From an uncultured bacterium (GTDB lineage Bacteria; Patescibacteriota; Minisyncoccia; UBA6257; 2-01-FULL-56-20): 64,000 bases of DNA. Both the position numbers and the translations under genes were made by a program. Positions 1 to 19,788 of the stretch are shown here, one piece after another (within the stretch, counting starts at the first letter, position 1; the number at the start of each line of letters is the position of its first letter). The notes beneath the pieces are model-generated. The model was not told the origin of the DNA. It saw only the letters and a list, made by a program, of their open reading frames with translations, and did no database searches. The stretch spans positions 556,011 through 620,010 of the forward strand of contig OY970175.1 of NCBI GenBank assembly GCA_963707865.1, in the 5' to 3' direction.

Positions 1-1300
1 TCATGATCTCAAGATCGGGTATCGCCACACGGATCCGATCGCCTTTTTTATACACCTTTCCACCATGCACATAATTCGGTCCCGTATATTCATATTCATC
101 ACACACCTTGAATGACCTGATACCATCCAAAACGTCTAATTTCGTGAGAATCACATTCGGCCCGGTGAGCTTGACCGCCGAATAGCGGACAAGGGGAAGG
201 TCAAGCCATCCGGTGCGGCGTGCACGACCGGTGGTTGCGCCGTATTCATTCCCTTTTTGCCGAATCGCGATCCCCTGCACGAATTCGTCCGGATCGTTTA
301 TGGAAGCGTTTGGATAATTTTCCGCCTCCGTCCTTCGGCTCGCACGCCTTACATGCTCGGCAGATCGTCCACCCCCGAGCTCAGTTGGAAACGGCCCTTC
401 GCCGACGCGCGTCATGTAGAAGGCCTTAACAATACCAAAAGTAAGATCAACGTTCTGCTCGCGGAGCCCTACGCCCTTCGCAAGCCCCTGGATGGAGCAA
501 TCCGACGACGTGACATACGGATACGTTCCGTAATCAACGGAGAGCATGTTGCCCTGTGCGCCTTCAAGAAGAATTTTCTTTTTGTGAAGGAGTTCGCGCA
601 GCATCGCATCGGTATCTGCGATGAACGGGCGCAACGCTTTCCCATATTGCAGATAGCGCTTTGCGATGCGCTCGGTGTTAAAAATATTTTTCGGATGATA
701 AAACTCGCCGCGGCGCAAAATATCCTGATACATGATCTCGCGGACGACGCGCGGATCGTACGTCTTGATCAATCGGATTTTCTCCTCCAAATTCCTACGC
801 AATTTTTTCCTGAATACTTTTGGGTTCAGAAGATCGTTCACTATGAGCCCCAAGCGTGCGACGTGGTCGGTATACGCCGGCCCCATGCCGCGGCCCGTCG
901 TACCTATCTTTCCGGTTCCTCCCGATGCTTCTCGGACGCGGTCCAAAACAACATGCTGCGGCAGCACAAGCCGCGCGTTCAGAGCGATGCGCAACCGCTC
1001 CGGAGAAAGACCCGCCTTCGTAAACATCGCAATTTCGTCTAAAATCGTCCCGGGCTCCACGGCGACGCCCGAGCCAATTATATTGAGCTTCTTATGTAGC
1101 ATCCCCGACGGCAGAAGGTGGAATACAAATTCTTTTTTGCCCAATTTGACGGTGTGGCCCGCGTTCGCGCCACCCGTGCCGCGCGCGATGACGTCCGCCC
1201 AGTGCTCGGCGAAATAATCAACGAATTTCCCCTTTCCCGTGTCTCCCCACTGCGTGCAAACTATCCCCAGCGTCCGGACGCCCTTCAAAATATCACGCAT
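1..1300 (-). CDS. purA: adenylosuccinate synthetase; C-terminal end runs off the window start (partial)
   Basis: My translation of the minus strand from an ATG at about 1298-1300 gives [30 protein letters not shown] (the QWGDxGKGK P-loop of AdSS), and further in GATTGRARRTGWLD (the GTTGRxRRCGW motif). The start overlaps the guaB stop by 8 nt. This gene is not in the ORF track because it is truncated. Confidence 0.85.
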   Translation of the reverse strand, partial: MRDILKGVRTLGIVCTQWGDTGKGKFVDYFAEHWADVIARGTGGANAGHTVKLGKKEFVFHLLPSGMLHKKLNIIGSGVAVEPGTILDEIAMFTKAGLSPERLRIALNARLVLPQHVVLDRVREASGGTGKIGTTGRGMGPAYTDHVARLGLIVNDLLNPKVFRKKLRRNLEEKIRLIKTYDPRVVREIMYQDILRRGEFYHPKNIFNTERIAKRYLQYGKALRPFIADTDAMLRELLHKKKILLEGAQGNMLSVDYGTYPYVTSSDCSIQGLAKGVGLREQNVDLTFGIVKAFYMTRVGEGPFPTELGGGRSAEHVRRASRRTEAENYPNASINDPDEFVQGIAIRQKGNEYGATTGRARRTGWLDLPLVRYSAVKLTGPNVILTKLDVLDGIRSFKVCDEYEYTGPNYVHGGKVYKKGDRIRVAIPDLEIM

Positions 1301-2792
1301 GGTCTCTCCGATAGTTGGGCGCGTCGCGTACAATGCGTACTCCGTGGGGATGGGATTCTCTGATGCCGACGGCGCTGATACGGATGAACTCTGCCTTACT
1401 CCGCAGCTCTTCAATCGTCCGCGCGCCGACGTATCCCATCCCTTTTTGCAAACCGCCGACATACTGGTGCATCACGCTTTCCAATTCACCGATGTACGGC
1501 ACCACTCCTTCCACCCCCTCCGGCACGAACCGGTCTTTCGCCGTATTCGCCTCGCGATACCGCTCGCGTGAACTACGGCTCTCTTCCATCGCGGAAAGCG
1601 ACCCCATGCCGCGGTATCGCTTCATCGGCGTTTCAAAACGGAAATCGACTTCTCCCGGCGCTTCTTTGGTGCCCGCAAGCAGTTTGCCGAGCATCACCGA
1701 ATGTGCTCCCGCGCCGATCGCGATCGGGATGTCGCCGGAATTCTCAATACCGCCGTCCGCGCAGATCGGCACGTCCGTTTTTTCAAGTGCTTTTGCCACT
1801 TCATAGGTCGCCGTGACTTGCGGACAACCAATCCCCGCCACGATCCGCGTTGTACATATAGAACCTGGGCCCTGGCCCACCTTCACTCCGTCAGCCCCCG
1901 CCGCGACGAGCCGCTTCGCCGATTCGCCCCGTGAAATATTGCCCGCCACGACATCAACGCGATACGCTTTCTTGAGCGCCTTAATCGTCTGGATAACGTC
2001 TTTTGAGTCACCGTGCGCGGTGTCAATGACCAAAACGTCCACAAATCCCTTAAGCGCTTCCGCCCGCTCCATCGCATCGTCATTCACGCCAATCGCCGCG
2101 CCGACGCGAAGCCGCCCATGGCTGTCAACGTTATATTTTCCCGATCGGCCGGATTTGATCCGCTTGAGATCAGAAAAGAGATACATACCGACAAGATTGC
2201 CCCTGTTCACAAGCGGAAGAACTTTTTTCTTCGCCTTGAGCATGACCTCATATGCCTTATCAATCGACGTGCCCTTGGGCGCCGTCACAAGGTCGCGCGT
2301 CATGACATCCTTCACCTTCTGCGATCCGTCGCCCGAAAAATCAAAATCGTTCTCGGTGATAAGGCCCGCGAGCTTGCCGCGCGCGTCCATGACGGGGAAA
2401 CTGTAGAAGGAAAACCCCTTCTCCCTGCGCATCGCTTCCACTTCCTGGAACGTCATGTCCTCGCGGATCGTTATCGGCGTCTCTATGAGGCCCGACAGGT
2501 GGAACTTCACGCGGCGGACCTCTTCGCTCTGCTCCTTGGGTGTAAACCCTCTGTGGATTACGCCCAAGCCGCCGAGCTTCGCCATCGCGATCGCCATCCG
2601 GCTCTCCGTCACCGTGTCCATCGCCGCGCTTGTGATCGGAATTTTGAGCGGCACGTTGCGCGAGAACCGGCTCGTGAGCACCGTGGCGCTCGGCATCACA
2701 TCGGAGTAGTCCGTCTTCAACCGCACTTCGTCGTAGGTCACCGCAAGACCGAGTCCGGCGAGCTGCTTAAAAAATGTATCACACTTCCGCAT
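1293..2792 (-). CDS. guaB: IMP dehydrogenase with an internal CBS pair
   Basis: 499 aa. Contains the catalytic loop GIGCPQ...GGIENSGD, the motif [12 protein letters not shown], and a CBS insert ([10 protein letters not shown]...[12 protein letters not shown]). Confidence 0.9.
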
Positions 2793-2985
2793 ATATGCAG
2801 TTCATTATATTGAGTTTTCCAAATATTTGCAAAAGCAAACACCCGTCCCAAAATGGCGAAAGGCAGGTCGCTATTTGCAACCTGCCCATCATATTCGCCG
2901 ATGGCATAGCATCCCAGATGATTCGTCTTGTCCATCATCATCTGTAAGCGCCTGCCCAAGGCCTCGGCGTGGGGCCTGTACTGAA

Positions 2986-3435
2986 TTAACTTGCAACAGT
3001 AAGCTCGAGGATACCGAGGAGCTCCCGCGCGAGATCAATAGCCGAGCGCCATTCATCCGTGGTGCCCGTAAGATAGTGCTCGCGGACAGGGTGCTTCTTC
3101 TCGGAAGCACGACTCACCTCAAGTATGACCATCGAACCAGTGCGAAACACCAAGACAAACTTGACTTCCTCCTTGTGCACAAGGAGGTGCCTCGCCACAT
3201 CGAACATCTCGACCGAAAATTCAGTGTCCGGAGCTTCCAAAATGACCGCCCGGCAGCTGTCTGGGATACACCGCGCGACCTCGTAAAATTCCGGTTCCCA
3301 CTCCGGCCCCCAGCTACCAACGGGCGGAAAGTAGAAACGGGTTGGATTCTTGAGCGTGAGAACTGAGATATCTCCCATGCCAAGAATCCTTTCTTCTTCT
3401 CCTCTGCACGTTACCGCAGTAATCTCTCTCGACAT
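2986..3435 (-). CDS. hypothetical protein (149 aa) embedded between guaB and purM
   Basis: ORF in the same orientation and spacing as the pur operon. I recognise no family motif. Its reality rests on its operon context. Confidence 0.4.
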   Translation of the reverse strand: MSREITAVTCRGEEERILGMGDISVLTLKNPTRFYFPPVGSWGPEWEPEFYEVARCIPDSCRAVILEAPDTEFSVEMFDVARHLLVHKEEVKFVLVFRTGSMVILEVSRASEKKHPVREHYLTGTTDEWRSAIDLARELLGILELTVAS

Positions 3436-3501
3436 ATTTTGGGCTACCTCCAGAGCCGCCTATGTTATAACCTCTCCTGCCGTTTATAGCAAGGGTTTTG
3501 C

Positions 3502-4620
3502 CTATCCGGCGCCCGGCGGCGGTAGGGTGATATTTTCGGGTTCAAAAATGACTTCTCGGTTGCCTTCTTCCACGACGCCGAGGTCAAAAAGTTCGTAGCC
3601 GACTTTCTTGCCAAGGGAAACAGTCCGGTCAACTTCTTCCTTCGGCACAAAAAGATAATAGCCGACGCCCCAGTTGAAGGTCTTGAGGCAGTCGCGGAGG
3701 GAAACGCCGAGTCCGCGCATAAATTGAAAAAGCGGCGGCACGGCGGGCCAGTTTTGGATGCGATAGGTAAATGGCCTTTTATCAAACGCGAGCTTGCCGA
3801 TGCCGTCGCCCGTGCCAGGCAGGATCGCCGCGATTCGCACGCCGGCACTTTGGAGCGCCTCCACGAGTGCGACGTATGAGCGGGTTGGAATCAGAGCTTC
3901 TTCGCCGAGCGTGGTACCGTTCGGAAGCTTCGTGAGAAATTTGTCGGGAAGTTCCATCGCGCGCTTGATGACGAGCGAGATACCGTTCGCGTGCAAGCCG
4001 GAGGACACGGCGCCGACAATATGACATCCCGGCGCGAGCTCTTTTCCAGTGATGAGATTTGTATTTGGCGCGATGATGCCCGTCGCGCAACCCGATAGCG
4101 AAGGTGCGGCAAGGACCGGCGGCTCGGATCTCAAGAGATACTTGAGCGCGGGCGATTCCCCTGCAGGCAGGGCCATCCCGACCTCTTTGCAAATCTTGAA
4201 AAACCCTTCGGCCAAGTCGCGGCTGCGCTTCTCGTCCGAGAACCACGCCGCGTCGCCCACCGCAACCTCGTCGGTAAAAATGACGGGCATCGCGCCCTGT
4301 GCAATGAGATCGTTCACCGCCATGAGCGCCGCATCAGTGCCGATCGTTTCATAGTAGGTCCTGCCGGTACCGGCGTTCTGGTACATCCATTCCGCAATCC
4401 AATTCTTGTTGCCGAGCCCTTCCTGCGTTTTGCACCAGAGGTGCGGCTGGCCGCCACGATATTCAAACACCGCGCCGTGCGCGTGGAGCACATCGTCATT
4501 CACGTAAACGCCGCGACGGTTCGGGAAAGAAAGCGTCCGCTTCCCCATCGCGATCATCGCCTGCTTGAAGGGCTCCAATTGCGTGTAATCCACGCCTGCT
4601 TTTGCGTATTCACTTTTCAT
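3502..4620 (-). CDS. purM: phosphoribosylformylglycinamidine cyclo-ligase (AIR synthase), long form
   Basis: N-terminus YAKAGVDY and the MAVNDLIAQGA block match the PurM signatures (YKDAGVDID, MCVNDLVVQGA). The stop overlaps the purB start region by 4 nt. Confidence 0.7.
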   Translation of the reverse strand: MKSEYAKAGVDYTQLEPFKQAMIAMGKRTLSFPNRRGVYVNDDVLHAHGAVFEYRGGQPHLWCKTQEGLGNKNWIAEWMYQNAGTGRTYYETIGTDAALMAVNDLIAQGAMPVIFTDEVAVGDAAWFSDEKRSRDLAEGFFKICKEVGMALPAGESPALKYLLRSEPPVLAAPSLSGCATGIIAPNTNLITGKELAPGCHIVGAVSSGLHANGISLVIKRAMELPDKFLTKLPNGTTLGEEALIPTRSYVALVEALQSAGVRIAAILPGTGDGIGKLAFDKRPFTYRIQNWPAVPPLFQFMRGLGVSLRDCLKTFNWGVGYYLFVPKEEVDRTVSLGKKVGYELFDLGVVEEGNREVIFEPENITLPPPGAG

Positions 4621-6029
4621 TCCCGCGCAAGCTTCTTCGCAATGCCAAGATAATTCTTCGGGGTGAAGCTTTTGAGTTCCTTTTTTAATTTGTCCGATAT
4701 CTTAAGGGAGTCCACGAAGGTGCGAATGTCGTCCAGAGTCACTTGTCGCCCGCGCGTAAGCTCCTTCAATTTTTCGTATGGCATGGGAACGCCCTCCCGG
4801 CGCAGAACGGTCTGGATCGCTTCGGAAATAATTTCAGGGTGTTCCATAAGCGCCTCTACAACTTTCGCTTCGTGTACCGAGATTCGTCCGAGGCCGTTCA
4901 GCAGATACGAGTAACCGATCGCACAATGCGCGAGCGCGACGCCGAAGTTCCGCAGGACGGTGGAGTCAGAGAGGTCGCGCTGCAGGCGCGATATGGGAAG
5001 TTTTGCAGAAAAATGAGCGAGGAGCGCGTTCGCAATCCCCAAATTGCCCTCGCTGTTCTCAAATTTTATCGGGTTCACTTTGTGCGGCATCGTGGAAGAA
5101 CCAACCTCGCCTTCTTTTGTTTTCTGCACGATCCACCCGTCGCTTATGTAGCGCCACACATCCTGGTCAAAATTGATGAGGATCGTATTGATGCGGCGAA
5201 GGGTATCAAAAAGCTCGGCATAGGTGTCGTACGGCTCTATCTGCGTCGTTACAAAACTCGGCTCAAGCGCCACGGCACCGCGACCGGAATGCAGCTGGTT
5301 CAAGCGAGCGATAAATCTTTTCGTGAACGCCATCCAATCAACTTTCGGGTACGCCGCCACATGTGCGTTGTAATTGCCGCTCGCGCCGTTCAGTTTTGCG
5401 AACACACGGGACGCGTTCAGCTGTTTCACTTGCCACGCAAGGCGTGTCCGGAATACGTTCATCTCTTTGCCGAAGGTTGTGGGTATCGCGGGCTGCCCGT
5501 GGGTCCGCGCAAGCATCGGCAAGGCCGCGTACCGTCTTGCGGATCGTTCCAATTCCGCAGCAATCTTCTCAAGTAACGGTGCAAGTACTTCGCGAATGGC
5601 GTCGCCGAGCATCAAGCTGTTTGCAAGGTTGTTCACATCCCAGGTAGTGAGCGCAAAATGCAGCCACCCCAGGGAATCCTTGAGCGAAGTCCTCTTAAGC
5701 TTCTCGCGCATAAAATATTCCACCGCCTTCACGTCATGGTCGGTCGCCTTGATGCCGCGATATCCCACACGCTCAATGTCGCTGATTATTTTTGCGTCCC
5801 TGAGTGACAGCTTGTAAAGGTTGCGGATAAGCCCTTTCTCGCGTTTGGAAAATTTACGGAGACCAACGCCGCGCGTCTCCGAGAGTGCGATAAGATATTC
5901 GCCTTCCACGACGAGCCGGTAGCGCATGAGTCCGGACTCGCTGAAAATCTTTGCAAGGCCTTCTCCATAGCTCCGATATCGCCCGTCCACGGGGCTTATC
6001 GCTGCAAGCTGATCTATGCGCGTATCCAT
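4617..6029 (-). CDS. purB: adenylosuccinate lyase
   Basis: Contains LARTHGQPAIPTTFGKE and GSSTMPHKVNP (the fumarate-lyase signature). The likely true start is the internal Met MDTRIDQLAAISPVDGRY (E. coli MELSSLTAVSPVDGRY) at 6029. The ORF track begins 20 codons earlier. Confidence 0.9.
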   Translation of the reverse strand: MDTRIDQLAAISPVDGRYRSYGEGLAKIFSESGLMRYRLVVEGEYLIALSETRGVGLRKFSKREKGLIRNLYKLSLRDAKIISDIERVGYRGIKATDHDVKAVEYFMREKLKRTSLKDSLGWLHFALTTWDVNNLANSLMLGDAIREVLAPLLEKIAAELERSARRYAALPMLARTHGQPAIPTTFGKEMNVFRTRLAWQVKQLNASRVFAKLNGASGNYNAHVAAYPKVDWMAFTKRFIARLNQLHSGRGAVALEPSFVTTQIEPYDTYAELFDTLRRINTILINFDQDVWRYISDGWIVQKTKEGEVGSSTMPHKVNPIKFENSEGNLGIANALLAHFSAKLPISRLQRDLSDSTVLRNFGVALAHCAIGYSYLLNGLGRISVHEAKVVEALMEHPEIISEAIQTVLRREGVPMPYEKLKELTRGRQVTLDDIRTFVDSLKISDKLKKELKSFTPKNYLGIAKKLARE

Positions 6030-6042
6030 GTTGTTCGGGTTA

Positions 6043-7320
6043 TTACAAAGCTTTTGCGCCGATATCCTTTCTATAATACATCTTTTCAAATTTTATTTTT
6101 CCCACCCCCGCGTACGCCCTGCGGAGCGCCTCCGCGAGTGTCGGTCCCGTTGCACTTACGCCGAGTACTCTCCCGCCTGACGTGACGAGTGCGCCATCCG
6201 CGAGCTTGGTTCCGGCATGAAACACCACAACGCCTTCTATTTTCTCCGCTTCGGGAATGCCCGCGACCGGAAATCCTTTTTCGTACGCGCCGGGATACCC
6301 GCCCGATGCCATCACAACGCACACCGCATAGCCCGAACTCCACTCTATAAAAATCTCTTTCAATCTCCCGGAAGCGCACGCATAAAAAATATCCAGAAGG
6401 TCGGCCTTCAAGAGTCGCATGAGTGATTGCGTCTCGGGATCGCCAAAGCGCGCGTTGAACTCAAGCACTTTAGGCCCTTCGGGAGTGATCTTCAACCCGG
6501 GATACAAACACCCCGAAAAGGTGCACCCTTTTTTCTTCATGGCGCGGAGCGTGGGATCAAGGATCGTCTGCGCGATCTGGTTTTGAAGCTCGTCGGTCAC
6601 CCATGGCACAGGAGCGATCGTCCCCATGCCGCCGGTGTTCGACCCCGTGTCGCCCTCGCCCACCGGTTTGTGGTCCTGCGCGGTGGGCATCATCGCGCGC
6701 GAGATTCCGTCGGAGAATGCGTGAACGGAAATTTCCTGCCCTTCCAAAAATTCCTCTATTACCACTTCGTTCCCCGCATCTCCGAACGTGCGGTCAACCA
6801 TAATGCTTTTAAGCGCGGCCTTCGCTTCCTCCATTGTATTACAAACCATCGCTCCCTTCCCAAGTGCAAGCCCGCTCGCCTTCACAACGATCGGCACGGA
6901 TTGCGATGCAAGGTATCGCGATGCTTCGTCGTAATCCGTGAATACCTGGAACGCCGCCGTAGGAATATATTCTTCCTGCATGAGCTGCTTTGCGAACGCT
7001 TTTGAGGCCTCTATTTGCGCCGCCGCCTTCGTCGGGCCAAATACCAAAAACTTTTCTTTTTGAAATTGATCCACAATGCCGAGCGCGAGAGGATCGTCAG
7101 GGCCCACAACCACAAGATCAATGGACGATTTTTTTGCGAACGCGATAAGCGCCGGAATGTCGTCCGCTTTTATAGGAATGTTTTCGGCGAGCGACCCAAG
7201 CGAAGCAGTACCACCGTTCCCGGGCGCAATGAAAAGCTTCCCGAGCCGCGGCGACTGCGCAAGCTTCCACGCGAGCGCGTGTTCCCGCCCGCCGCTCCCT
7301 ATCAAAAGCACATTCATCAT
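6043..7320 (-). CDS. purD: phosphoribosylamine-glycine ligase
   Basis: Begins MNVLLIGSGGREHALAWKL. It has an ATP-grasp core and a C-terminal GGRVLGVSA block. Confidence 0.9.
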   Translation of the reverse strand: MMNVLLIGSGGREHALAWKLAQSPRLGKLFIAPGNGGTASLGSLAENIPIKADDIPALIAFAKKSSIDLVVVGPDDPLALGIVDQFQKEKFLVFGPTKAAAQIEASKAFAKQLMQEEYIPTAAFQVFTDYDEASRYLASQSVPIVVKASGLALGKGAMVCNTMEEAKAALKSIMVDRTFGDAGNEVVIEEFLEGQEISVHAFSDGISRAMMPTAQDHKPVGEGDTGSNTGGMGTIAPVPWVTDELQNQIAQTILDPTLRAMKKKGCTFSGCLYPGLKITPEGPKVLEFNARFGDPETQSLMRLLKADLLDIFYACASGRLKEIFIEWSSGYAVCVVMASGGYPGAYEKGFPVAGIPEAEKIEGVVVFHAGTKLADGALVTSGGRVLGVSATGPTLAEALRRAYAGVGKIKFEKMYYRKDIGAKAL

Positions 7321-8060
7321 CCCTGCGGAAAAAGAAGTATGGCGGCCTTTTTCGCTTCGTTAAGCATAGTTTCTTCTCCTTTGCGGACAAGCGGCGTTTC
7401 GCGCACGAGCTCCTGCACGCGATCGTTCATAAAATCCTCTAGGGTTGCGATCTGCGTTTCGTGCTCCAAGGGGAGCAGCCGCGCCGCGAGCGACTTCGGA
7501 TCATCATCCGGCAGGATTGCGAGCCGCGTGCGCGCGAGGACCGCGCCTTCGTCAAACTGCACCGCCACGCGCTGCGCCGTTGCCTCCGTCCAGAAATCGC
7601 GGTTTACGCTCCGCACAAATAAGAGCCGCGCCGCGTGGACACGCAGGCCGAACATCCCCTTGCCCCCGAAATCGGGGCGGCCGGGATCAAGCGGCCCCGG
7701 GTGCTGGTTGATCATGGCATTGCGAAATGCGGCAATCACGTTGCCGGGCGTTTTGATCATCCATCCGTACTGGCCGACGATATCAACGGCTTGCTCCTTG
7801 AGGACTTTCAAAATCGCGCTTCCGAACTCTTCTTCGTTTGCGAATTTCTTCGGCTCAATAACAAAAATGTCCTCGCGCAACATTCCCAACCGCTCCATTT
7901 TTTTAATCGCCCCGGCATCGGATCTGCTTGCGACAAGGCACGCGGGAATTATTCCCGAAAGCCGCCCGGCGTGGCACGCCGTGACGATTGCTTCCGCGGT
8001 CGTGCCGCCCCCCGAAGCAAGTATGGCCAAACGAAACGTTTTCATGCCTTTCATGCCCAA
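7317..8060 (-). CDS. purN: phosphoribosylglycinamide formyltransferase (divergent PurN-like)
   Basis: Contains LAILASGGGT (Rossmann loop as in PurN LISGNGSNL) and INQHPGPL (compare LNIHPSLLP). It overlaps purD and purF by 4 and 10 nt. Confidence 0.6.
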   Translation of the reverse strand: MGMKGMKTFRLAILASGGGTTAEAIVTACHAGRLSGIIPACLVASRSDAGAIKKMERLGMLREDIFVIEPKKFANEEEFGSAILKVLKEQAVDIVGQYGWMIKTPGNVIAAFRNAMINQHPGPLDPGRPDFGGKGMFGLRVHAARLLFVRSVNRDFWTEATAQRVAVQFDEGAVLARTRLAILPDDDPKSLAARLLPLEHETQIATLEDFMNDRVQELVRETPLVRKGEETMLNEAKKAAILLFPQG

Positions 8061-9457
8061 GTTTCCTGCAGAGCCGGTATACCGACTTCCGCCTTCCGTT
8101 CACGGATGTCCAGGGGATATTTTCCGGTGAAACAGGACGTGCACAGTTTGTCTTCGGGAACACCGATCCCTCTGAGAATCCCCTGATACGAAAGATAGTG
8201 GAGAGAGGTCGCGCCCAGAAATTCCCTTATCTCGGGAATGGTCTTTTGGAAGGCGAGGAGGCGCGCTTGCCTAGGCGTGTCAATACCGTAAAAATCGGGA
8301 AAGCGCACGGGCGGAGAGTTCACTAAGAAATGCACTTCTTTCGCGCCCGCTTCAAAGAGGATCTTTACGATCTGCGGGCTCGTGTTGCCACGCACGATGG
8401 AATCGTCTATTACGATGACGCGCTTGCCACCCACGATATCGGGGATGGCCGCAAGCTTCGTTTTCACCCCCTGCTTGCGCATCCGGTCGTCCGGATCAAT
8501 GAATGTGCGGTACACATAGCGATTTTTGACGAGTGCGAGTTCCAAAGGGATCCCCGACTCTTCTGAGTAACCGACGGCGGCGGGCAGGCCGGTTTCGGGG
8601 ATGGGGATCACCATGTCGGCATCAATTTTCCGCTCCCGTGCAAGTTCAATGCCGCACCGCTTGCGTGCGGCGTACACCGAGGTCCCCAAAAGCACGCTGC
8701 TTGAGCGCGCGAAATAGACGAATTCAAAGATGTCCAGCTTTTGATCGGGCGGCACAAGTTGAACTGACCTCATGCCTTTCTCGTCCACCACGATCATCTC
8801 ACCGGGAAGGACGTCGCGCATGAAAGTCGCTCCGACCGTAGGAAAGCTGCACGTCTCGGAAGAGAACGTAAACCCACCGTTCAACTGCCCCATAGAGAAC
8901 GGCTTGAGGCCATAGGGATCGCGCACGGCAACGAGCGTCGTCTTGTCCATAATGAGAAGCGAGAACGAGCCGGTGAAAAGTGGGTAGGCCTTCCGCACCG
9001 CGTCCTCAAGCGGAAGACCCTGCTTCGTGAAATGTTCGATGGCGAGTGTCATCATGTAGGAATCCGAGCGGCCTGTCACGTCCACCCCTTCTTTTTTCAA
9101 AAATTCCTCAAGTACCTTCACGCTTGGCAGGTTGCCGTTGTGCGCAAGCGCGATATGCCCATCCCCCGTCATGATCGGCTGTGCGTGCCGAATGCCGGTT
9201 CCCGATGAAGTGGAGTATCGGTTCTGGCCGATCGCAATGTGCCCTTTCAAACTATCAATTTTTGCTTCGTCAAAAACCTGCGTGATAAGACCGTTGCCTT
9301 TTTGGCATTCAAGGCGTGTGCCGTCGGCGGTCGCCATTCCTGCACTCTCCTGCCCGCGGTGCTGGATGGCAAGAACGCCGAAGAACGTGATCCGCGCCAC
9401 ATCCATGCCTTTTCCGTAAATGCCAAAGACGCCGCACTTCTCATTGAGTTCGTGCAT
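8051..9457 (-). CDS. purF: amidophosphoribosyltransferase
   Basis: N-terminal CGVFGIYG (Ntn nucleophile Cys) and a type-I PRTase domain (VIVIDDSIVRGNT). Confidence 0.9.
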   Translation of the reverse strand: MHELNEKCGVFGIYGKGMDVARITFFGVLAIQHRGQESAGMATADGTRLECQKGNGLITQVFDEAKIDSLKGHIAIGQNRYSTSSGTGIRHAQPIMTGDGHIALAHNGNLPSVKVLEEFLKKEGVDVTGRSDSYMMTLAIEHFTKQGLPLEDAVRKAYPLFTGSFSLLIMDKTTLVAVRDPYGLKPFSMGQLNGGFTFSSETCSFPTVGATFMRDVLPGEMIVVDEKGMRSVQLVPPDQKLDIFEFVYFARSSSVLLGTSVYAARKRCGIELARERKIDADMVIPIPETGLPAAVGYSEESGIPLELALVKNRYVYRTFIDPDDRMRKQGVKTKLAAIPDIVGGKRVIVIDDSIVRGNTSPQIVKILFEAGAKEVHFLVNSPPVRFPDFYGIDTPRQARLLAFQKTIPEIREFLGATSLHYLSYQGILRGIGVPEDKLCTSCFTGKYPLDIRERKAEVGIPALQETWA

Positions 9458-9469
9458 GTTGTTCGTACG

Positions 9470-10444
9470 TTACGGTTTATGCAGGACAAACGCCTCTAAA
9501 TTTTTTCTTATGCGATCCAACGCCGGCATCGTGAAGTCCGGCGCGAACGTCCGTCCCGTGATCTGTTCAAAAATCTTCACGTACCGGCTCGCGAGTTCCA
9601 CCACCATCTCGCGCGGCGCCTCGGGCAACACGGCGTCCTTATAAGGATCGCAATGTTCCTTGAACCAAAGCCGCAAAAACTCCTTGTCAAAATTTTCTGG
9701 CTCTTCGCCCTTTGCAATGCGCGCCTCGTAACTTGCCTGCTGCCAATAGCGGGAAGAATCAGGAGTATGTATCTCGTCAATAAGCATCACTTCTCCTTTT
9801 GGAGAAATGCCGAATTCATATTTCGTGTCCACAAGGATCAAACCGCGCTGTTTCGCCAGTTCCTCACCGCGCGCGAAAAGGCGCATCGCCAAATCTTCAA
9901 TTTGCTCCCATATTTCTTTCTTCACAAGCCCTTCGTTTATGATCTCATCCCGCGTGATCGGCCGATCGTGCGTATCTGATTTCGTAGCGGGCGTGAGAAT
10001 GGCGTGCGGCAGTTTTTGGTTCTTTTTCATCCCTTCGGGCAGGGTAAGGTCGCCAAACCGTCGTTCGCCTTTTTGATAAAGCGTCCAAATGGAGGTCCCA
10101 GTAACACCTGTAATGTAGGCGCGCGGGACAAGCTCTATTGGAATCACCTCGCACCTTTCCGTCACCATCACGTTCGAATCGGGAATCGCAATCACGTGGT
10201 TTTTCACGATATCCACGGTCTTTTCAAACCAAAACGTGCTTACTTGTGTAAGCACGTTTCCCTTGAACGGGATGAGGCACAGATTCCTGTCAAACGCGGA
10301 GTAGCGGTCGGTTGCGACAAGGATCAGCCGGTCAGGCTGCACGTACACATCACGCACTTTCCCCGAGCGGCGCTCGCCAAGGTCGCGGAAATCGGTCTTC
10401 TCAATAACATCCCCAATGTGCGCTTCTATGGTTGCCTTATCCAT
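9470..10444 (-). CDS. purC: SAICAR synthetase
   Basis: 324 aa. Contains GKVRDVY...[13 protein letters not shown], typical of the PurC family. Confidence 0.85.
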
Positions 10445-10931
10445 TGGTTTCCATTTTCTTTGCTTTTTCCATCACGCCGTCGCCAAGCTTCCGCTTGTAA
10501 TCCAAAATCTTTTTTTGGAGCGCCGCATCGCCCGCTCCCAAAATCTGCACGGCGAGGATGGCGGCGTTCTTCGCACCGTTGATCGCCACAGTCGCGACGG
10601 GAACTCCGGGCGGCATCTGGACGGTGGAATATAACGAATCAAGACCATTCAAGGTCTTGGATTGTATGGGAACTCCGATCACAGGAAGCGGCGTCATCGC
10701 GGCAGTCACTCCCGCAAGGTGCGCGGCGCCGCCGGCTCCCGCGATGATCACTTTCAGACCGCGGTCCACGGCGCTCTTTGCGTACTCATACGCCCGGTCC
10801 GGCGTGCGGTGCGCGGAGATAACCGTCATCTCATACGGCACGCCGAATTCCTTGAGCGCGTCCGCCGCCTCCTGCATCACGGGCAGATCGGAATCGGAAC
10901 CCATAATAATACCTACGAGGGGCTTAGGCAT
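10437..10931 (-). CDS. purE: N5-carboxyaminoimidazole ribonucleotide mutase (class I PurE)
   Basis: Contains [10 protein letters not shown]...SAHRTPD...[11 protein letters not shown]. The SAHRTP form indicates class I, which normally pairs with PurK. Confidence 0.85.
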
Positions 10932-11014
10932 TGTTCTCGGTCAATTATGCCCTTATTCTACCATACCCGTGGATTGCCACGCCAGCTGGCCGCTCCACCA
11001 CCGCATCGCTATAG

Positions 11015-11596
11015 CTAAATCATCTTTTTCTTCCGGGCGGAGACGAGCAGCCGTTCATAAATCGTGAGGATTTTCTTGTCGTGCAACATGTAGTCGCGTT
11101 TGTATTTTTGAAGCTCGGCCTCGGTGATCCCGTGTTCCTTCCACGGAGGCGTGCCGGAGGCGAGACCTTGGAGCATGGGCTGCAAGCGGTCTATGGAAAT
11201 CGCCACTTTTGCCTCCTTGGTGCGCCCGGCTTCAAACTCCGCCCAGAGCCGGTGGAATTTCTTTTTGAGATCCGGCGGCAAACGCCCAAAGAGCTTTTTT
11301 GCCGCCACGTCCTCACGAGCCTTTTTGGACCTGCGCGCCGCATGGTCAAAAAGAAAAGTGTCGCCCGCGTAAATTTCCACAAGATCATGCGCGAGAATCA
11401 GTTCCAGTGTCCGCAAAAGATCGAGGCTGCGCGGCAAGTCCCTAGAAAGAACCATGGCCCACAGGGCGAGGTCATAAGAATGTTCTGCGCTGCTCTCCGG
11501 ACGCTTCCCGCCGGCAATCCTCGTCCGCCGCTCAACCAACTTCAATTTCGTGGCCTCTCCGAGAAACGAAAGTAGGGTATCAATTCTATCTTTCAT
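11015..11596 (-). CDS. HD-domain phosphohydrolase (YfbR-like 5'-deoxynucleotidase family)
   Basis: Contains ESSAEHSYDLAL...LAHDLVEIYAGD (HD motif). It lies inside the pur operon, overlapping purQ by 4 nt. Confidence 0.6.
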   Translation of the reverse strand: MKDRIDTLLSFLGEATKLKLVERRTRIAGGKRPESSAEHSYDLALWAMVLSRDLPRSLDLLRTLELILAHDLVEIYAGDTFLFDHAARRSKKAREDVAAKKLFGRLPPDLKKKFHRLWAEFEAGRTKEAKVAISIDRLQPMLQGLASGTPPWKEHGITEAELQKYKRDYMLHDKKILTIYERLLVSARKKKMI

Positions 11597-12363
11597 TTGA
11601 AATACCCGACGGCATTCTTGAAAACCTGGAGGCCGGGGCCATGGATGGGAAGCTTTTTCCCTGCGCGCTCCAATTTCTCTTTAAGGTAAGGCCAGTGCGG
11701 GAGCTGCGTGAAGAACATCGCGCGCTCGGGATGCGGCATCGTTCCCAAAATTCTCCCCTCGCGGGCGGTGATGGAGGCGATGTCCCTCATTGCGCCGTTC
11801 GGATTCGCGGCGAGATCTTGATATTTGCAAACTTCCCCTTTTATGTATTTTGCGGCGATTGCATGGCTTTTCTCCAAAACGGCAAGCGTCTTCGAATCCG
11901 CAAAGTATCTCCCCTCGCCATGCGCGATCGGAACCATAAGCGTCTTTATCCCGCGCATCCACGGCGTCTCGCCCACAATTTTCAAATCAACCCAACGGTC
12001 GGTGTACCGCGCGGAGGTGTTTGGAAGCAAAGCGCCGGGCAAAAGGCCGAGGTTCGTGAGGATTTGAAAGCCGTTGCAGATCCCGATTACGAGCCGGTCG
12101 CCGCTCACGAACTTTTCCAGTTCTTCGCGAAGATGATTCTTTAGCTTGTTGGCATACGCCTTGCCGGAGCCCGTGTCGTCGCCGTACGAAAATCCTCCGG
12201 GGATCGCAAGAATCTGATAATTTTTCAATTTTCCCTTTTCCGCAACAAGGTCGTTCACGTGGACAATGTCCGCACGCGCACCCGCGAGGTCAAACGCGTA
12301 TTTGGTCTCGTCCTCGCAATTGAGGCCGTATCCAGAAAGCACAATGGCGCGCGGTTGTTTCAT
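11593..12363 (-). CDS. purQ: FGAM synthase, glutamine amidotransferase subunit
   Basis: Class-I GATase: GICNGFQ (nucleophile Cys) and HGEGR/MPHPER at the C-terminus. Confidence 0.8.
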   Translation of the reverse strand: MKQPRAIVLSGYGLNCEDETKYAFDLAGARADIVHVNDLVAEKGKLKNYQILAIPGGFSYGDDTGSGKAYANKLKNHLREELEKFVSGDRLVIGICNGFQILTNLGLLPGALLPNTSARYTDRWVDLKIVGETPWMRGIKTLMVPIAHGEGRYFADSKTLAVLEKSHAIAAKYIKGEVCKYQDLAANPNGAMRDIASITAREGRILGTMPHPERAMFFTQLPHWPYLKEKLERAGKKLPIHGPGLQVFKNAVGYFK

Positions 12364-12365
12364 GG

Positions 12366-15299
12366 TTAATATCCTTTGAACATAGATTTATATGCGCGCA
12401 GCATCAGGGCGAGCGGCACTTTCGCCGTTTTTCTGCGACAGATGGAAACGTAGCTTTTGTTCGTCACGCGGCCGATGCAGGCGAACGAATTGCCGCGCAT
12501 TTTCTTCTCAAACTCACGGCGACGGCGCGGGGCGATAGTCGCGACGATTCTCCCTTGGCTTTCGGAAAACATCGCCGACTCATCGCTTGAAACCATTCCC
12601 GGCAGCTTGGCGAACGAAACATCCAAACCGAGCTTCCCCGCCATCGCCGTCTTCGCGAGCGCGACCGCAAGCCCACCCCTCTGCACGCCGATGGCCGAAG
12701 CCACCGTGCCTGCGCGCACGCACGAATAGAACGCATCGTACAACCGCTTGTTCTTCTTCGCGTCCACGTGCGGAACCCTTCCGGTTGAAAAATATTCGCT
12801 GCCACCAAGCTCATCAAAGGTATCGCCCAAAACATACACAAGGTCACCCGCCGACTTCGCGTCAAGCGACACCGACTTCGCGGCATCGGGAACAACGCCG
12901 ATCGCGGAGATCAAAAGCGTGGGTGGGATCGAAATTTTCAACGGTTTCCCGTTCGCATCGTACCCTTTGAAATCGTTGAACATACTGTCCTTTCCCGAAA
13001 TGAACGGCGTCCCGTATGCGACTGCGTAGTCGTAACATGCCTGCACGGCGCGCTTCAGTTGGAACAGCCGCTCCGGCTCATTGGAACTGCACCAGCAAAA
13101 ATTATCAAGTAGCGCAAGATAATCGGGGTCGGCACCCGCGGCCACGGCGGATCGGATCGCGGTATCAATCGCGCACGCCGCCATCGCGTAGGGATCGCGC
13201 TCCGAGTATGAGGGAACTATGCCTGACGAGAGCACCACCCCTTTAGGAGAATCAAGAACCGGGCGGAAAACCGACGCGTCCGCGTTCACCCTTCCCCTTC
13301 CGACGAGCGGCTTCAACACGGAACTTGCCTGCACCTCGTGATCGTATTGCATGGCAATAAACTCGGAACTTGCAATGTTCGGATGCGCGAGTATGTGGAA
13401 GACCGCTGCGCCGAGGTCGCGCTCCTCGCGAAGCGGCGAGTCGATGTCAGGTGGCAGCGGCTCGCGGGTCGTGAGCCGCTTCGTGGGCAGTCCTTCGTGG
13501 AGAAATTCCAAATCAACATCCATCGCGGTCTTCCCTTTGAACTTCACAACGCACTTCCCGGAATCCGTAAAGCACCCGATTACGGTTGCCTCAACACCGC
13601 GCGCGCGCAAAAGCTTGGAAAGTTCTTGCCAGTTGGATTTCGGAACGGCGAGCGTCATGCGCTCCTGCGATTCCGAAATCCAGATCTTCCACGGCTCAAG
13701 GCCAGGATATTTAAGCGGCACCTTATCCAAATCAACAAGGCATCCGTTGCACTCCTTCGCCATCTCGGCCACCGAGCACGACAGCCCTCCGGCGCCGTTG
13801 TCCGTAATGCTGTGATAGAGTTTACGGTCGCGCGCTTCTTTTATCAGGGCGTCGCTCATCTTCTTTTGCGTGATCGGATCGCCGATCTGCACCGCCGTCG
13901 CAGGACTTCCCGAATCCATCGCTTCCGAAGAAAATGTCGCACCATGGATGCCGTCCTGCCCCACGCGGCCGCCCGTCATCACGATGTAATCCCCCGCCTG
14001 CGCCCGCTTTTTATACAAAGACCTGCCCCCGTGCACGCGCGGGATGAGCCCCACCGTCCCCACAAAAACAAGTGGCTTCCCTCGGTAACGCTTGTCAAAA
14101 AGGACGAATCCCTGTGGTGTGGGGATGCCGGAGCAATTTCCACCGACGTTCACGCCCCTCACCACACCGTCCATGATCCGCCGCGCGGAAAGCATTTTCT
14201 GCTTTTTAGCCGCATCCCGGTAGAGCACGCTCGTATCGCGCGGGTCGGCGAAGCAAAAGCCGTACAGGTTCGCGACCGGCTTCGCGCCGAGCCCGAATCC
14301 CATCGTGTCGCGGTTCACGCCGACAATGCCCGTGACCGATCCGCCAAAAGGGTCAAGCGCGGAAGGACTGTTGTGCGTTTCCACCTTATGCGTGATTAAA
14401 TATTTATCATCAAACGCTATCGCGCCGGAATTGTCAGTGAAAACCGAAACACAAAAATCTTTTTTGCCTTTCTTCTTGCGGATGTCATTCGTCGCTTGTT
14501 TGATGTACGAACGAAAGAGGCCTCCTTTCACCTCGTCAATTGGATCCGCGAAGATTGTGTGTTTGCAATGCTCCGACCACGTCTGCGCGAGTGATTCAAC
14601 CTCCACGTCAGTCGGCTTGCGCTTTTTCTTCGTGAAGTAATCGCGAATCGCCTTCATACTCGGAAGATCAAGCGCGAGCGGCCCGTTCCGCGTCCCGTCT
14701 TTGTTCTGAATCCCTTCCTTCCCAATGCGGGAGAGCTCTTCGTCGCTCACTTCCAAATTTACGGCCTCCACGGACGGTTTCGTGCGAAGATTCACCTTTG
14801 GAACCGCCGCCCCCATTCCCTTATCGCGCTTGAATTCGCTGGCGCTCTTGATCCGCGCACGCTGGATGAGCGGGTTATAAAGACCTTCGGCAATTGCCGC
14901 TACATCCTCTTTGGGCAATCTTCCCGAGAGGAAGAGAACCTGCGAGGAATATACACCCTGGCCGTTTTTACATTTCCTTCCCAGGAAATCTTCTATCGTT
15001 TCGCGGGCGGTCGTGCCCACGTTGTCGGTCACGCCCGGGAGAAATCCGACCTCAACCGCCCACGCAAACTTCTTTGGCGCCTCGGCAGAATTAATTACCG
15101 CTCGTTCAACGAGCGGGTTTTCAAAAAGTGCGGCGACTCCCTTGCGCTCTTTTGTCGTGAGCGGCATGTCCACCACGTATGAATCCGCAAGCGCGACGCC
15201 GGCAATCTTCCCTTTGAAGCCGCGGTCTTCAAGCTGCCGCCGATACACCTCGGCCCGCGTGTCAGGTACTTTATATCTGACGTCTATGCGCACAGCCAT
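12366..15299 (-). CDS. purL: FGAM synthase II with N-terminal PurS-like domain (purS-purL fusion, 977 aa)
   Basis: Residues 1-70 look like PurS (...LFENPLVE, compare PurS LLANPVIE). The rest is the PurL/AIRS-like double domain with Gly-rich ATP loops (VGLIPRVHGG, VLGDTFDELGGSEYF). Confidence 0.8.
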   Translation of the reverse strand: MAVRIDVRYKVPDTRAEVYRRQLEDRGFKGKIAGVALADSYVVDMPLTTKERKGVAALFENPLVERAVINSAEAPKKFAWAVEVGFLPGVTDNVGTTARETIEDFLGRKCKNGQGVYSSQVLFLSGRLPKEDVAAIAEGLYNPLIQRARIKSASEFKRDKGMGAAVPKVNLRTKPSVEAVNLEVSDEELSRIGKEGIQNKDGTRNGPLALDLPSMKAIRDYFTKKKRKPTDVEVESLAQTWSEHCKHTIFADPIDEVKGGLFRSYIKQATNDIRKKKGKKDFCVSVFTDNSGAIAFDDKYLITHKVETHNSPSALDPFGGSVTGIVGVNRDTMGFGLGAKPVANLYGFCFADPRDTSVLYRDAAKKQKMLSARRIMDGVVRGVNVGGNCSGIPTPQGFVLFDKRYRGKPLVFVGTVGLIPRVHGGRSLYKKRAQAGDYIVMTGGRVGQDGIHGATFSSEAMDSGSPATAVQIGDPITQKKMSDALIKEARDRKLYHSITDNGAGGLSCSVAEMAKECNGCLVDLDKVPLKYPGLEPWKIWISESQERMTLAVPKSNWQELSKLLRARGVEATVIGCFTDSGKCVVKFKGKTAMDVDLEFLHEGLPTKRLTTREPLPPDIDSPLREERDLGAAVFHILAHPNIASSEFIAMQYDHEVQASSVLKPLVGRGRVNADASVFRPVLDSPKGVVLSSGIVPSYSERDPYAMAACAIDTAIRSAVAAGADPDYLALLDNFCWCSSNEPERLFQLKRAVQACYDYAVAYGTPFISGKDSMFNDFKGYDANGKPLKISIPPTLLISAIGVVPDAAKSVSLDAKSAGDLVYVLGDTFDELGGSEYFSTGRVPHVDAKKNKRLYDAFYSCVRAGTVASAIGVQRGGLAVALAKTAMAGKLGLDVSFAKLPGMVSSDESAMFSESQGRIVATIAPRRRREFEKKMRGNSFACIGRVTNKSYVSICRRKTAKVPLALMLRAYKSMFKGY

Positions 15300-15443
15300 T
15301 TCCTTAATTCAGAGTATATCACATCCCTGCCTTAATCCATTACTCGCACTACAGATAACAAACTAAGGTAGAGAGGGAATCTGCGCATACGATCATTGAT
15401 CGCCACACATACTCCCTCACCCAACCTTCCTTCATTCCTCCTT

Positions 15444-15752
15444 CTACTGAGAAACAACAGTGGCCCTTGTCCTCGCTTGGGCCATGGCGGTGAACTGTTG
15501 CCCAAGAAAGAGTAAAAAGTCGCCCGCCATCTCCTCGGCGACCGTCACTTTTTCATCCTTCGGGTCATACTCAGCCGGCATCACCCAGGCGACCTGAGTA
15601 ATCCATGAAGCCCGGCCCTTCATGATTTCTCGGACTATCTCCTCCGGCTCGTGGACATACGTCTCTTCCCAGTCACCATGGTGAGACCGCAAACACCAAT
15701 TGCGGTCGATGTGGCAATCCCTTGCCTCGTTCAGCAAAACAAGCCCCTTCAT
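15444..15752 (-). CDS. hypothetical protein (102 aa)
   Basis: ORF only. It is acidic and sits upstream of the pur operon on the same strand. Confidence 0.3.
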   Translation of the reverse strand: MKGLVLLNEARDCHIDRNWCLRSHHGDWEETYVHEPEEIVREIMKGRASWITQVAWVMPAEYDPKDEKVTVAEEMAGDFLLFLGQQFTAMAQARTRATVVSQ

Positions 15753-15873
15753 GATTCACCCCAAGCAGAATGAAGTCAGACGATCCTCTGTCCGCTGCGG
15801 AAAGCTTATCAAAACCAATACCGTTGTCAATATAATTTGCGTCCCAGATTGCAAGGTCTGTTAGAATGAGGAT

Positions 15874-16458
15874 ATGGAGAAGGGCAAACCGCGACCCGGA
15901 CTTCCACCGAACGCACATCTTGTCTTTAAGGGCGTGATCTTTGAAGTGTGGCAATGGGAACAGGAAATGTTTGATGGAACAACAGAAATTTTTGAAAGGG
16001 TATGGCGGCCGCCGGCAGTAGAGGTCATCGCAACAGTCGGCGACAAGATCCTTATCGAAGACCAAGACCAGCCCGACCGGCCAGACAATATCAATTTCCC
16101 GAGCGGCAGAGCGGACAAAAACGACGATCCGCTCTTAGAAGCGAAGCGGGAGTTACTTGAAGAAACCGGCTATGAATCGGCTGACTGGCAGTTATTCATG
16201 AAACACGCAAGAGACGGAAAGGTAATGCAAGACAGTTATTTCTTTATCGCAAGAAATTGTAAAAAGACTGGCGAGCCGCACCTTGATCCCGGAGAAAAGA
16301 TAGAAACGAGGCTCGTCACGTTTGACGAGCTCATCGCCCTCGCCGACGAGCCACGCTTCTGGATATTTCCCGAATTCATCAGTTACCTCCTCCGGCTGCG
16401 GCTTGACCCCGCGAAGAAACAGGAATTCAAAATACTGCTCTTCCCCTATACACATTGA
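15874..16458 (+). CDS. NUDIX hydrolase
   Basis: Nudix box GRADKNDDPLLEAKRELLEETGY (Gx5Ex7REUxEExGU). Confidence 0.75.
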   Translation: MEKGKPRPGLPPNAHLVFKGVIFEVWQWEQEMFDGTTEIFERVWRPPAVEVIATVGDKILIEDQDQPDRPDNINFPSGRADKNDDPLLEAKRELLEETGYESADWQLFMKHARDGKVMQDSYFFIARNCKKTGEPHLDPGEKIETRLVTFDELIALADEPRFWIFPEFISYLLRLRLDPAKKQEFKILLFPYTH

Positions 16459-17041: not shown

Positions 17042-17410
17042 ATGATCATAGATTTTTCCGAGCCGATTGCCATCTGGGAGATCGGCCTGGCAATGATCAT
17101 CACCGCCAACGGGGGGAACGGTGGATTCAAAGATTGTACCGGTGTTCTTGAAACTTTTTTCCAGAGGCACCGGTCGTCAATGTCGTTCATCTTGCCGGGA
17201 TACGTAAGCCCCGAGGTTTATCAAGCGACCGCAGAACTTGATAAGCTTGAGCGAGCTAACTACATAGTCCGTCAAGGGGGCCTGCTCACCGTAACGCCCA
17301 TCGGAATCAATTACTTCAAAGAGCACCTCGCATATCGATTCCATGGGGCGAAAGGAGAAGAACTCCACAAGCTTGCGGCGGAATTCCGCAAGCAGTTCGC
17401 CACCGAATAA
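17042..17410 (+). CDS. hypothetical protein (122 aa)
   Basis: Good RBS (GGAAGGAGGAAAAG) and an upstream TTGACG -35-like box. No family recognised. Confidence 0.45.
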   Translation: MIIDFSEPIAIWEIGLAMIITANGGNGGFKDCTGVLETFFQRHRSSMSFILPGYVSPEVYQATAELDKLERANYIVRQGGLLTVTPIGINYFKEHLAYRFHGAKGEELHKLAAEFRKQFATE

Positions 17411-17518
17411 GGCGGTAGACCGCGACCGGCCCGTTGAGAGTCTTAACCTCCGGCGGGCCGCGTACTTTATTTGTTAGATTTATGGGTTGCCCCTCTTGAG
17501 GTATATGAGGTATATATA

Positions 17519-18478: not shown

Positions 18479-18536
18479 ACGAAAATACCTCGGGAATGCG
18501 GAGCCCACTCGCATACGCCATAGCCCCTATGGCGGC

Positions 18537-19328: not shown

Positions 19329-19342
19329 GGGATTGCCATCTA

Positions 19343-19606
19343 TTGTACCACAATAATGCCGGCGGCCGGAAGTGGTATAATGGCAATGTGCGGAAAAAGG
19401 ATGCCATCTATGATGCGGAGAAACTCGCCCGGTTTTTTGGCGTCACAAAAAAGACAGTGTGGGACTGGTGCAAACGCGGCAAGCTCCCCGGTTTCAAGAT
19501 CGGGAAACAATGGAAGGTGCGCGTGGCGGATTTACAAAAGATGATTGACCGGAAAATATGGCGCCAAAAGGAAGGTGCGTCGCCGGCAACCCCGAAATTA
19601 TTTTAA
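19343..19606 (+). CDS. small HTH DNA-binding protein (excisionase/MerR-like)
   Basis: FFGVTKKTVWDWCKRGKLPGFKIGKQWKV matches the excisionase-family HTH pattern. Confidence 0.45.
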   Translation: MYHNNAGGRKWYNGNVRKKDAIYDAEKLARFFGVTKKTVWDWCKRGKLPGFKIGKQWKVRVADLQKMIDRKIWRQKEGASPATPKLF

Positions 19607-19634
19607 AGGTCGAAAAAAATCATTCATCATTCCC

Positions 19635-19781
19635 ATGTGGAAGCAATGGGTTAATTTCATCCTCGGCATTCTCGTTGTGGTTTTCGCGTACGCAAGCAGT
19701 GGCCATACCTTGCGCTTTGTGATCGCTGGTGTTTTGATCGCAGTGCTCGCGCTCTGGACCGCGCTACAAAAGAAAGCGTAA
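19635..19781 (+). CDS. small two-helix membrane protein (about 48 aa)
   Basis: The hydrophobic stretch WVNFILGILVVVFAYASSGHTLRFVIAGVLIAVLALW lies within the track ORF 19545..19781. Confidence 0.3.
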   Translation: MWKQWVNFILGILVVVFAYASSGHTLRFVIAGVLIAVLALWTALQKKA

Positions 19782-19788
19782 ACCACAC

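Follow-up and report, generated by a model that had tools for sequence, protein, structure and literature searches.

The pur operon of Bacillus subtilis is laid out as purEKBCSQLFMNHD. Here we describe a purine gene cluster from a bacterium of the Patescibacteria (Candidate Phyla Radiation, CPR; Minisyncoccia), located at positions 1-15299 of a 64-kb stretch of contig OY970175.1. The whole 64-kb stretch is referred to as the window, and coordinates are those of the window unless a relative is named. The cluster comprises 13 consecutive open reading frames (ORFs) on the minus strand. We consider it very probable that this is a conventional de novo purine cluster of such a bacterium, in which purH has been cut off by the window edge and a 149-amino acid (aa) ORF (ORF149) is a passenger.

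Several features of such clusters have been described in other organisms. In methanogens, PurS is replaced by about 200 additional residues at the N-terminus of PurL, a form termed mdPurL (Brown et al. 2011; PMC3261824). The extension shares little sequence identity with PurS or with the N-domain of large PurL, a domain whose structure resembles that of PurS (PMC3261824). Class I PurE lacking a PurK partner is known from methanogens, Desulfurococcales, some Thermococci and high-CO2 organisms, and has been explained by non-enzymatic formation of N5-carboxyaminoimidazole ribonucleotide (N5-CAIR) or by PurE action at high CO2/bicarbonate; its describers are explicit that they do not read a missing enzyme into it (PMC3261824). 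The purK mutants of Escherichia coli are rescued by over-expression of PurE or by high CO2, and PurK thus appears not to be strictly required for class I PurE function (PMC3261824). In one study, about a third of the CPR metagenome-assembled genomes (MAGs) had the complete de novo purine pathway (PMC11608272).

Gene content and the position of purH

Families were assigned with Pfam and NCBIfam (Table 1). An earlier reading made from the letters of the window alone (the sequence-only reading) had described a compact 13-gene cluster on one strand with short overlaps between genes, and both parts of that description were borne out. Six junctions overlap by 4-10 nt (purQ/HD 4, purE/purC 8, purF/purN 10, purN/purD 4, purB/purM 4 and guaB/purA 8). 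The remaining ones are gaps of 2, 12, 83, 66 and 193 nt, the 2-nt gap being that from purSL to purQ, apart from the purD/purB junction, which is a 47-nt overlap if purB starts at a TTG codon or a 13-nt gap if it starts at the ATG at 6029. The ATG, not the upstream TTG, is probably the true start; the purB of a relative is called at 471 aa. We infer an operon structure with translational coupling for the cluster. Window genes beyond it (ftsA, ftsZ, rmuC, hisS, GH130 and cofD) fit a small CPR genome.

Table 1. Genes of the purine cluster and associated sequence elements, in window coordinates
Feature	Position	Strand	Evidence and remarks
purSL ('mdPurL')	12366..15299	-	977 aa; Pfam AIRS, AIRS_C, FGAR-AT_linker; TIGR01736 510 bits, residues 215-975
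purQ, FGAM synthetase glutaminase subunit	11593..12363	-	GATase_5 E=5e-72; TIGR01737 182 bits, above cutoff
HD_3-family metal-dependent phosphohydrolase (predicted 5'-nucleotidase)	11015..11596	-	HD_3 E=1e-42; YfbR-like E=4.5e-9
purE, class I (N5-CAIR mutase) by motif	10437..10931	-	AIRC E=6e-68; TIGR01162 223 bits, above cutoff; 52% identity to E. coli PurE
purC, long form, PRK12607 type	9470..10444	-	SAICAR_synt E=1e-69; NF009251 424 bits, above cutoff
purF	8051..9457	-	TIGR01134 425 bits, above cutoff
purN, divergent GAR transformylase	7317..8060	-	Formyl_trans_N E=8e-17; TIGR00639 73 bits, below cutoff 150
purD	6043..7320	-	TIGR00877 536 bits
purB	4617..6089	-	NF006764 594 bits
purM, divergent CPR type	3502..4620	-	TIGR00878 143 bits, below cutoff 236; full-length match 4-352; 94% identity in L004, L005
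ORF149	2986..3435	-	149 aa; no family; orphan in variable purM-guaB slot
guaB, IMP dehydrogenase with CBS pair	1293..2792	-	IMPDH E=1e-135; TIGR01302 497 bits, above cutoff
purA, 3' end cut by window edge, about 60 codons missing	1..1300	-	Adenylsucc_synt E=6e-114, profile positions 2-347 of 416
Promoter-like element TTGCAA-17-TATAAT (GCTTTTGCAAA-N17-ATATAAT)	2804..2836	-	directly upstream of guaB
Conserved hairpin of about 50 nt, purSL leader	15323..15372	-	L004 ~1092-1145, L005 ~562-613; RNAalifold
FGAM, formylglycinamidine ribonucleotide; GAR, glycinamide ribonucleotide; IMP, inosine monophosphate.

The divergent PurN and PurM were considered as possible other enzymes, and this was rejected. 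Their full-length best matches are to PurN and PurM, and both are conserved in CPR clusters. PurN has the catalytic NxHP motif and the Asp (N-x-H...D), and most of its best matches in PDB are PurN/GAR transformylases.

The cluster was compared with loci of two close relatives, L004 and L005 (L003 and L030 supplied the flanks), and with more distant CPR clusters (L024, L026, L028 and L029). The nearest relatives of PurSL are 91% identical (on the 887,956-bp chromosome OY970382.1 of MAG MFD03726.bin.c.5) and about 91% identical ('Minisyncoccia bacterium' SPRUCE_501); identity falls to 60-71% in the other listed homologues, nearly all of which, where named, come from Patescibacteria/CPR or DPANN archaea. 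All 12 conserved cluster genes are present in L004 and L005, in unchanged order and with 82-96% amino-acid identity. The layout conserved in the lineage is purSL-purQ-HD-purE-purC-purF-purN-purD-purB-purM, followed by guaB-purA-purH(-prs).

The sequence-only reading had noted that purH is not in the cluster. This holds for the window, where tblastn with E. coli PurH found none (best E 2.3), but it is an effect of the window edge, since purA is cut at position 1 and purH lies downstream of purA in the close relatives. PurA is 495 aa long in a relative and is followed by purH. In L005, a 549-aa purH (17700-19349) starts 5 nt after the end of the purA ORF, on the same strand, and in L004/L030 purH comes after purA and an inserted 878-aa restriction-modification gene. 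A canonical purH is also present beside the cluster in the more distant L024 and L029. The L005 PurH query retrieved a 550-aa protein, P0130, with MGS and AICARFT_IMPCHas domains and 91% identity to the query. The one contig recorded for P0130 is 898,885 bp long, which is also the length of the contig recorded for the window's exact PurSL (P0002) and ORF149 (P0125). The genome almost certainly has an ordinary bifunctional purH, whose place would be just beyond the left edge of the window.

In the closest relative, prs, encoding phosphoribosyl pyrophosphate (PRPP) synthetase (Pribosyltran_N), lies about 560 bp downstream of purH (L030 12211-13278). The extended cluster of that relative spans PRPP synthesis to IMP, xanthosine monophosphate (XMP) and adenylosuccinate. 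Together, the cluster genes would take PRPP to IMP, XMP and adenylosuccinate, the PurK step being the only one not covered.

A different explanation, one of two that the sequence-only reading had put forward, is that purH and/or purK are truly absent and that the 5-aminoimidazole-4-carboxamide ribonucleotide (AICAR) transformylase/IMP cyclohydrolase or the N5-CAIR synthetase is provided by a non-orthologous protein, for which ORF149 was the candidate. It draws on the lack of both genes within the 64-kb window and on ORF149 itself, which sits in the cluster on the same strand as its neighbours and resembles them in the GC content of third codon positions. ORF149 also appears to belong to a real, if rare, family. 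The statement that this protein has no recognisable family was confirmed, as no match was found in Pfam, NCBIfam, PHROGs or PADLOC. A word-index search of 5.8 billion proteins returned only ORF149 itself, and an exhaustive phmmer search of 1.84 billion representatives gave one true homologue, P0126 (162 aa, 36-37% identity over the full length, E=3e-11), which lies on a 559-bp contig without context. A second phmmer match, to a eukaryotic-looking protein of repeated units, was judged spurious, and a 149-aa ORF beside guaB in L024 was rejected as unrelated. ORF149 is thus probably a genuine but very rare protein.

Its candidacy as a substitute enzyme, however, was not borne out. ORF149 is absent from L004 and L005, which have the same pathway layout and likewise lack an adjacent purK; a protein that sister genomes with the same pathway do without cannot stand in for purH or purK in the lineage. 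An AlphaFold2 model built from two sequences was poor (predicted local distance difference test, pLDDT, 51), its Foldseek matches in PDB were not significant, and no resemblance to the ATP-grasp, MGS, PurO or PurP folds was seen. Replacement is further opposed by the canonical P0130, on a contig of the same length as that of PurSL, and by purH following purA in the two nearest relatives. We therefore regard replacement as extremely improbable, and ORF149 is best described as a strain-specific passenger in a variable slot, outside the conserved pathway.

PurSL, PurE and the search for purK

The N-terminus of PurL had been described as PurS-like over about 110 aa. A PurS-like extension is indeed present, but it is a tandem of two units spanning about 160 aa, followed by a connector of about 45 aa (residues ~160-205), the FGAR-AT linker (206-247) and a core of the small-PurL type of FGAM synthetase (215-975). 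Sequence evidence for PurS is weak: Pfam PurS matched residues 3-58 with E=0.009, and a 26-sequence profile of the N-domain gave PurS 8j3n as its best match in PDB with E=0.43. The fold is clearer. An AlphaFold2 model of residues 1-215, built from the 26-sequence alignment, reached a pLDDT of 87.5 and has two beta-alpha-beta-alpha-beta units, at residues 3-69 and 80-152. The top 19 Foldseek matches were all to Salmonella FGAR-AT (1t3t) or human PFAS (9nb3), with probability 1.0 over about 160 columns and template modelling (TM) scores of 0.47-0.54, whereas Thermotoga PurS (1vq3) matched one unit, over 79 columns with probability 0.89. The large-PurL hidden Markov model (HMM) is colinear with PurSL (protein 191-959 to model 163-969), so the part matched by Foldseek corresponds to the large-PurL N-domain.

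It had also been proposed that alignment could show the N-terminus to be an ordinary large-PurL N-domain rather than PurS. The best matches are indeed large-PurL N-domains and a single PurS fits one half, but the choice is a false one because the large-PurL N-domain is itself a fused mimic of the PurS dimer. The core scores best with the small-PurL model TIGR01736 (510 bits, as against 228-272 bits for large-PurL models). PurSL ends in AIRS_C and has no C-terminal glutaminase domain; the glutaminase is the separate PurQ. No stand-alone purS was detected in the window, L003, L004, L005 or L030 by tblastn with a PurS fragment and both PurSL repeats, a test of low sensitivity. As modelled, PurSL joins a tandem PurS-like domain to a small-PurL core and is the partner of the separate PurQ. 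To judge by the fetched DNA, the tandem N-domain would substitute for a separate purS, and FGAM synthetase would consist of two proteins: PurSL, with its tandem N-domain standing in for the PurS dimer, and PurQ.

This form of PurL has already been described and is the standard one among the listed CPR/DPANN homologues, which are about 960-1070 aa long apart from two apparent PurD-PurSL fusions. The latter, P0055 (1702 aa) and P0094 (1415 aa), carry GARS_N/A/C together with FGAR-AT_linker, AIRS and AIRS_C, and may be true fusions or artefacts of gene calling. The term 'PurSL' was not found in the relevant literature, which speaks of 'mdPurL'; JGI annotates one homologue as 'subunit PurSL'.

Two loops of PurE are known as the 40s and 70s loops; class II enzymes have the loop GRSNGLGP, as against SAHR (40s loop) and AGGAAHLxG (70s loop) in class I. 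PurE of the window has the class I signatures SAHRTP and AGGAAHLAG. The sequence-only reading had pointed to a class I purE without purK alongside, and this was found to be so in the window and in most relatives' loci. Neither E. coli PurK (best E 0.34) nor the CPR PurK of L026 (no match at E <= 0.01) revealed a purK in the window by tblastn, and none was found in L003, L004, L005, L024, L028, L029 and L030, a search that covered about 38 kb around the cluster of the closest relative and stretches of about 20 kb of the others. In L026, purK lies directly upstream of purE. The 70s loop reads AGGAAHLAG in the PurE of five clusters without an adjacent purK (the window, L003, L024, L028 and L029) and AGGAAHLPG in the purK-linked L026.

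In the mechanism that we favour, carboxylation of 5-aminoimidazole ribonucleotide (AIR) would most likely be carried out by the class I PurE acting on N5-CAIR, which could arise non-enzymatically at high CO2/bicarbonate or be made by a purK encoded elsewhere in the genome. We infer that the route may be independent of PurK. A more specific proposal is that the lineage has truly lost purK, and that its class I-type PurE, with AGGAAHLAG instead of AGGAAHLPG, uses N5-CAIR formed spontaneously in a CO2-rich anoxic habitat or carboxylates AIR directly at high bicarbonate. It is supported by the lack of purK beside purE in every cluster compared except L026, by the P-to-A change shared by the PurK-less clusters, and by the precedents of methanogens, other archaea and the rescued E. 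coli purK mutants (PMC3261824). On the other side, a fraction of each genome was examined, and purK could lie elsewhere; with six sequences, one of them PurK-linked, the P-to-A change could simply reflect phylogeny. We give true loss of purK an even chance. It is compatible with a conventional purine cluster cut by the window edge, of which it sharpens one step.

Certain points weigh against the reading of the locus as a conventional cluster. PurN and PurM score below the NCBIfam trusted cutoffs, and they are assigned from the best-matching family, the catalytic motif and the operon context. The placement of purH rests on the relatives and on the match to the 898,885-bp contig, not on reading the DNA to the left of the window. 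The absence of purK was tested only in the window, about 38 kb of the closest relative and stretches of about 20 kb of the other relatives.

Variable slots, the HD phosphohydrolase and upstream elements

The order of the pathway genes is constant in the close relatives, and what lies between them is not. The contents of the spacers are unrelated between genomes, with two exceptions: the roughly 44 bp that precede guaB, and the HD-purE spacer, which L004 and L005 have in common at 91%. The purM-guaB spacer, which holds ORF149 in the window, is occupied in L004 by an 84-aa ORF and in L005 by a 215-aa HAD_2 hydrolase (13934-14578), both unrelated to it. Between purQ and HD, L005 has a 333-aa ORF with a DxDGT-like N-terminus and no Pfam match (4384-5382). 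Between purA and purH, L004 has the 878-aa restriction-modification enzyme (17352-19988, the same as L030 7330-9966; N6_Mtase, Eco57I and HSDR_N); as this insert shows, mobile or defence genes land inside the purine cluster. The variable slots, with passenger genes that differ between strains, are purQ|HD, HD|purE, purM|guaB and purA|purH.

Upstream of purSL, a 102-aa ORF of no family (15444-15752, minus strand) was not matched by tblastn in L004 or L005. A different small ORF occupies the place in the relatives, and the site is thus a further variable slot.

The presence of an HD-domain (YfbR-like) gene between purE and purQ, another claim of the earlier reading, was confirmed by the HD_3 match. 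The protein is closest to 3kh1 in PDB (E=2.5e-36), followed by human HDDC2 (E=1e-17) and YfbR (E=1e-3), and it reached 27 bits with the YfbR model NF003009, whose cutoff is 122. The signature AEHS...HDxxE...D could be aligned, and the identifiable H and HD ligands match those of 3kh1 and HDDC2. The gene is 92-94% identical in L004 and L005 and is conserved only in the three closest genomes. Elsewhere its position is taken by a HAD hydrolase in L024 (13775-14446, between purQ and purE) and by a Peptidase_M24-like gene in L028; in L029, purF directly follows purQ with nothing inserted. A HAD gene lies next to the purine cluster in L026. Phosphatases thus recur in association with CPR purine clusters (HAD in L024 and L026, HAD_2 in L005).

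Two views of the HD gene have to be weighed. It is best seen as a passenger older than ORF149. Alternatively, it could be a functional part of the pathway, acting as a nucleotidase that converts IMP, adenosine or guanosine monophosphate or AICAR (ZMP) to nucleosides for export, exchange with a host or control of the pools. The 4-nt overlap with purQ, the high identity kept in three genomes, the intact H...HD...D signature of the HDDC2/YfbR family and the recurrence of phosphatases in or beside CPR purine clusters (L024, L005 and L026) speak for such a role. However, the gene is not conserved beyond these three genomes, the corresponding slot of L028 holds non-phosphatase genes and that of L029 is empty, and HD_3 proteins are common housekeeping enzymes. 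A function in purine nucleotide/nucleoside handling is possible, although we consider membership in the pathway rather unlikely. A broader and still more doubtful proposal is that of a Minisyncoccia clade without PurK, with an altered class I PurE (AGGAAHLAG), whose purine operons serve as landing pads for passengers (HD and HAD phosphatases, a restriction-modification enzyme and orphans like the ORF149 family), of which at least the phosphatases have been recruited to shape the nucleotide/nucleoside pools in an episymbiotic life.

Two elements upstream of genes are conserved among the window, L004 and L005. The promoter-like element before guaB is the best sigma-70-like match in positions 1-16000 (10 of 12 positions), and its block does not vary among the three genomes, in a purM-guaB spacer that is otherwise unrelated. 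This invariance suggests that guaB-purA(-purH) forms a second, separate transcription unit. The second element is the hairpin in the leader of purSL, with an outer stem CCTTAG...CTAAGG and an inner stem TCACCC/GGGTGG, which occurs once in the window. RNAalifold gave 19 pairs, of which 2 are compensatory when the three genomes are compared, and the hairpin had no match in Rfam. It is possibly a regulatory element, and there is too little to call it one. The observation that the purSL leader has no riboswitch agreed with the Rfam scans: over the window at the gathering threshold only tRNA-Ile was reported, and a relaxed scan of 15200-15900 gave nothing credible.

Outside the cluster, an rve-family integrase (insertion sequence transposase, 311 aa) and a DUF3800 protein (32113-33930, minus strand) lie between ftsA (34744-35988) and ftsZ (30296-31594), which are adjacent in the related L024 and L028. 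A 1400-aa protein encoded on the minus strand at 48133-52335 combines an LCAT / alpha-beta-hydrolase lipase-like domain in its centre with a peptidoglycan-binding domain at its C-terminus; it may serve an episymbiont as a secreted or surface effector.

Implications and comparison with known systems

The small-genome CPR bacterium can apparently make its own purines, and the purK step is the sole one left open. The locus also carries a caution, as a pathway gap at the edge of a sequence window was mistaken for a missing enzyme with a replacement candidate, and the relatives show that the gene had been cut off. Of modest interest are the recurrence of unrelated passengers inside an otherwise conserved biosynthetic operon and the fact that, in most of the related clusters compared, class I purE has no purK beside it. 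Even if purK is truly absent, this would be an already known situation.

Like the PurK-less class I PurE of archaea, the PurE described here has class I motifs and no adjacent purK; unlike those cases, it comes from a bacterial CPR lineage, and the absence of purK covers the window and the examined loci only. The HD protein shares the HD_3 domain and the intact metal-binding signature with the HD-domain 5'-nucleotidases HDDC2 and YfbR, its closest match 3kh1 being itself uncharacterised, but it is only a distant relative of E. coli YfbR.

PurSL resembles the mdPurL of methanogens in its N-terminal extension of about 200 aa, the separate purQ and the lack of a separate purS in the fetched DNA. 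It differs in being a bacterial CPR version, and its fold has here been modelled and matched to the large-PurL N-domain. With large PurL (1t3t and 9nb3), its best structural matches, PurSL shares the order of tandem PurS-like domain, linker and FGAM synthetase core; it differs in lacking the C-terminal glutaminase domain, and its core scores best as small PurL.

The cluster as a whole is similar to the pur operon of B. subtilis in having nearly the whole pathway on one strand with short overlaps and a separate PurQ. It departs from that operon in its gene order, in the absence of an adjacent purK and of a purine riboswitch or PurBox-type leader detectable by Rfam scans, and in the fusion of purS to purL. 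In addition, guaB and purA (and prs in a relative) have been joined to the cluster, and the passengers HD and ORF149 are interspersed among the pathway genes.

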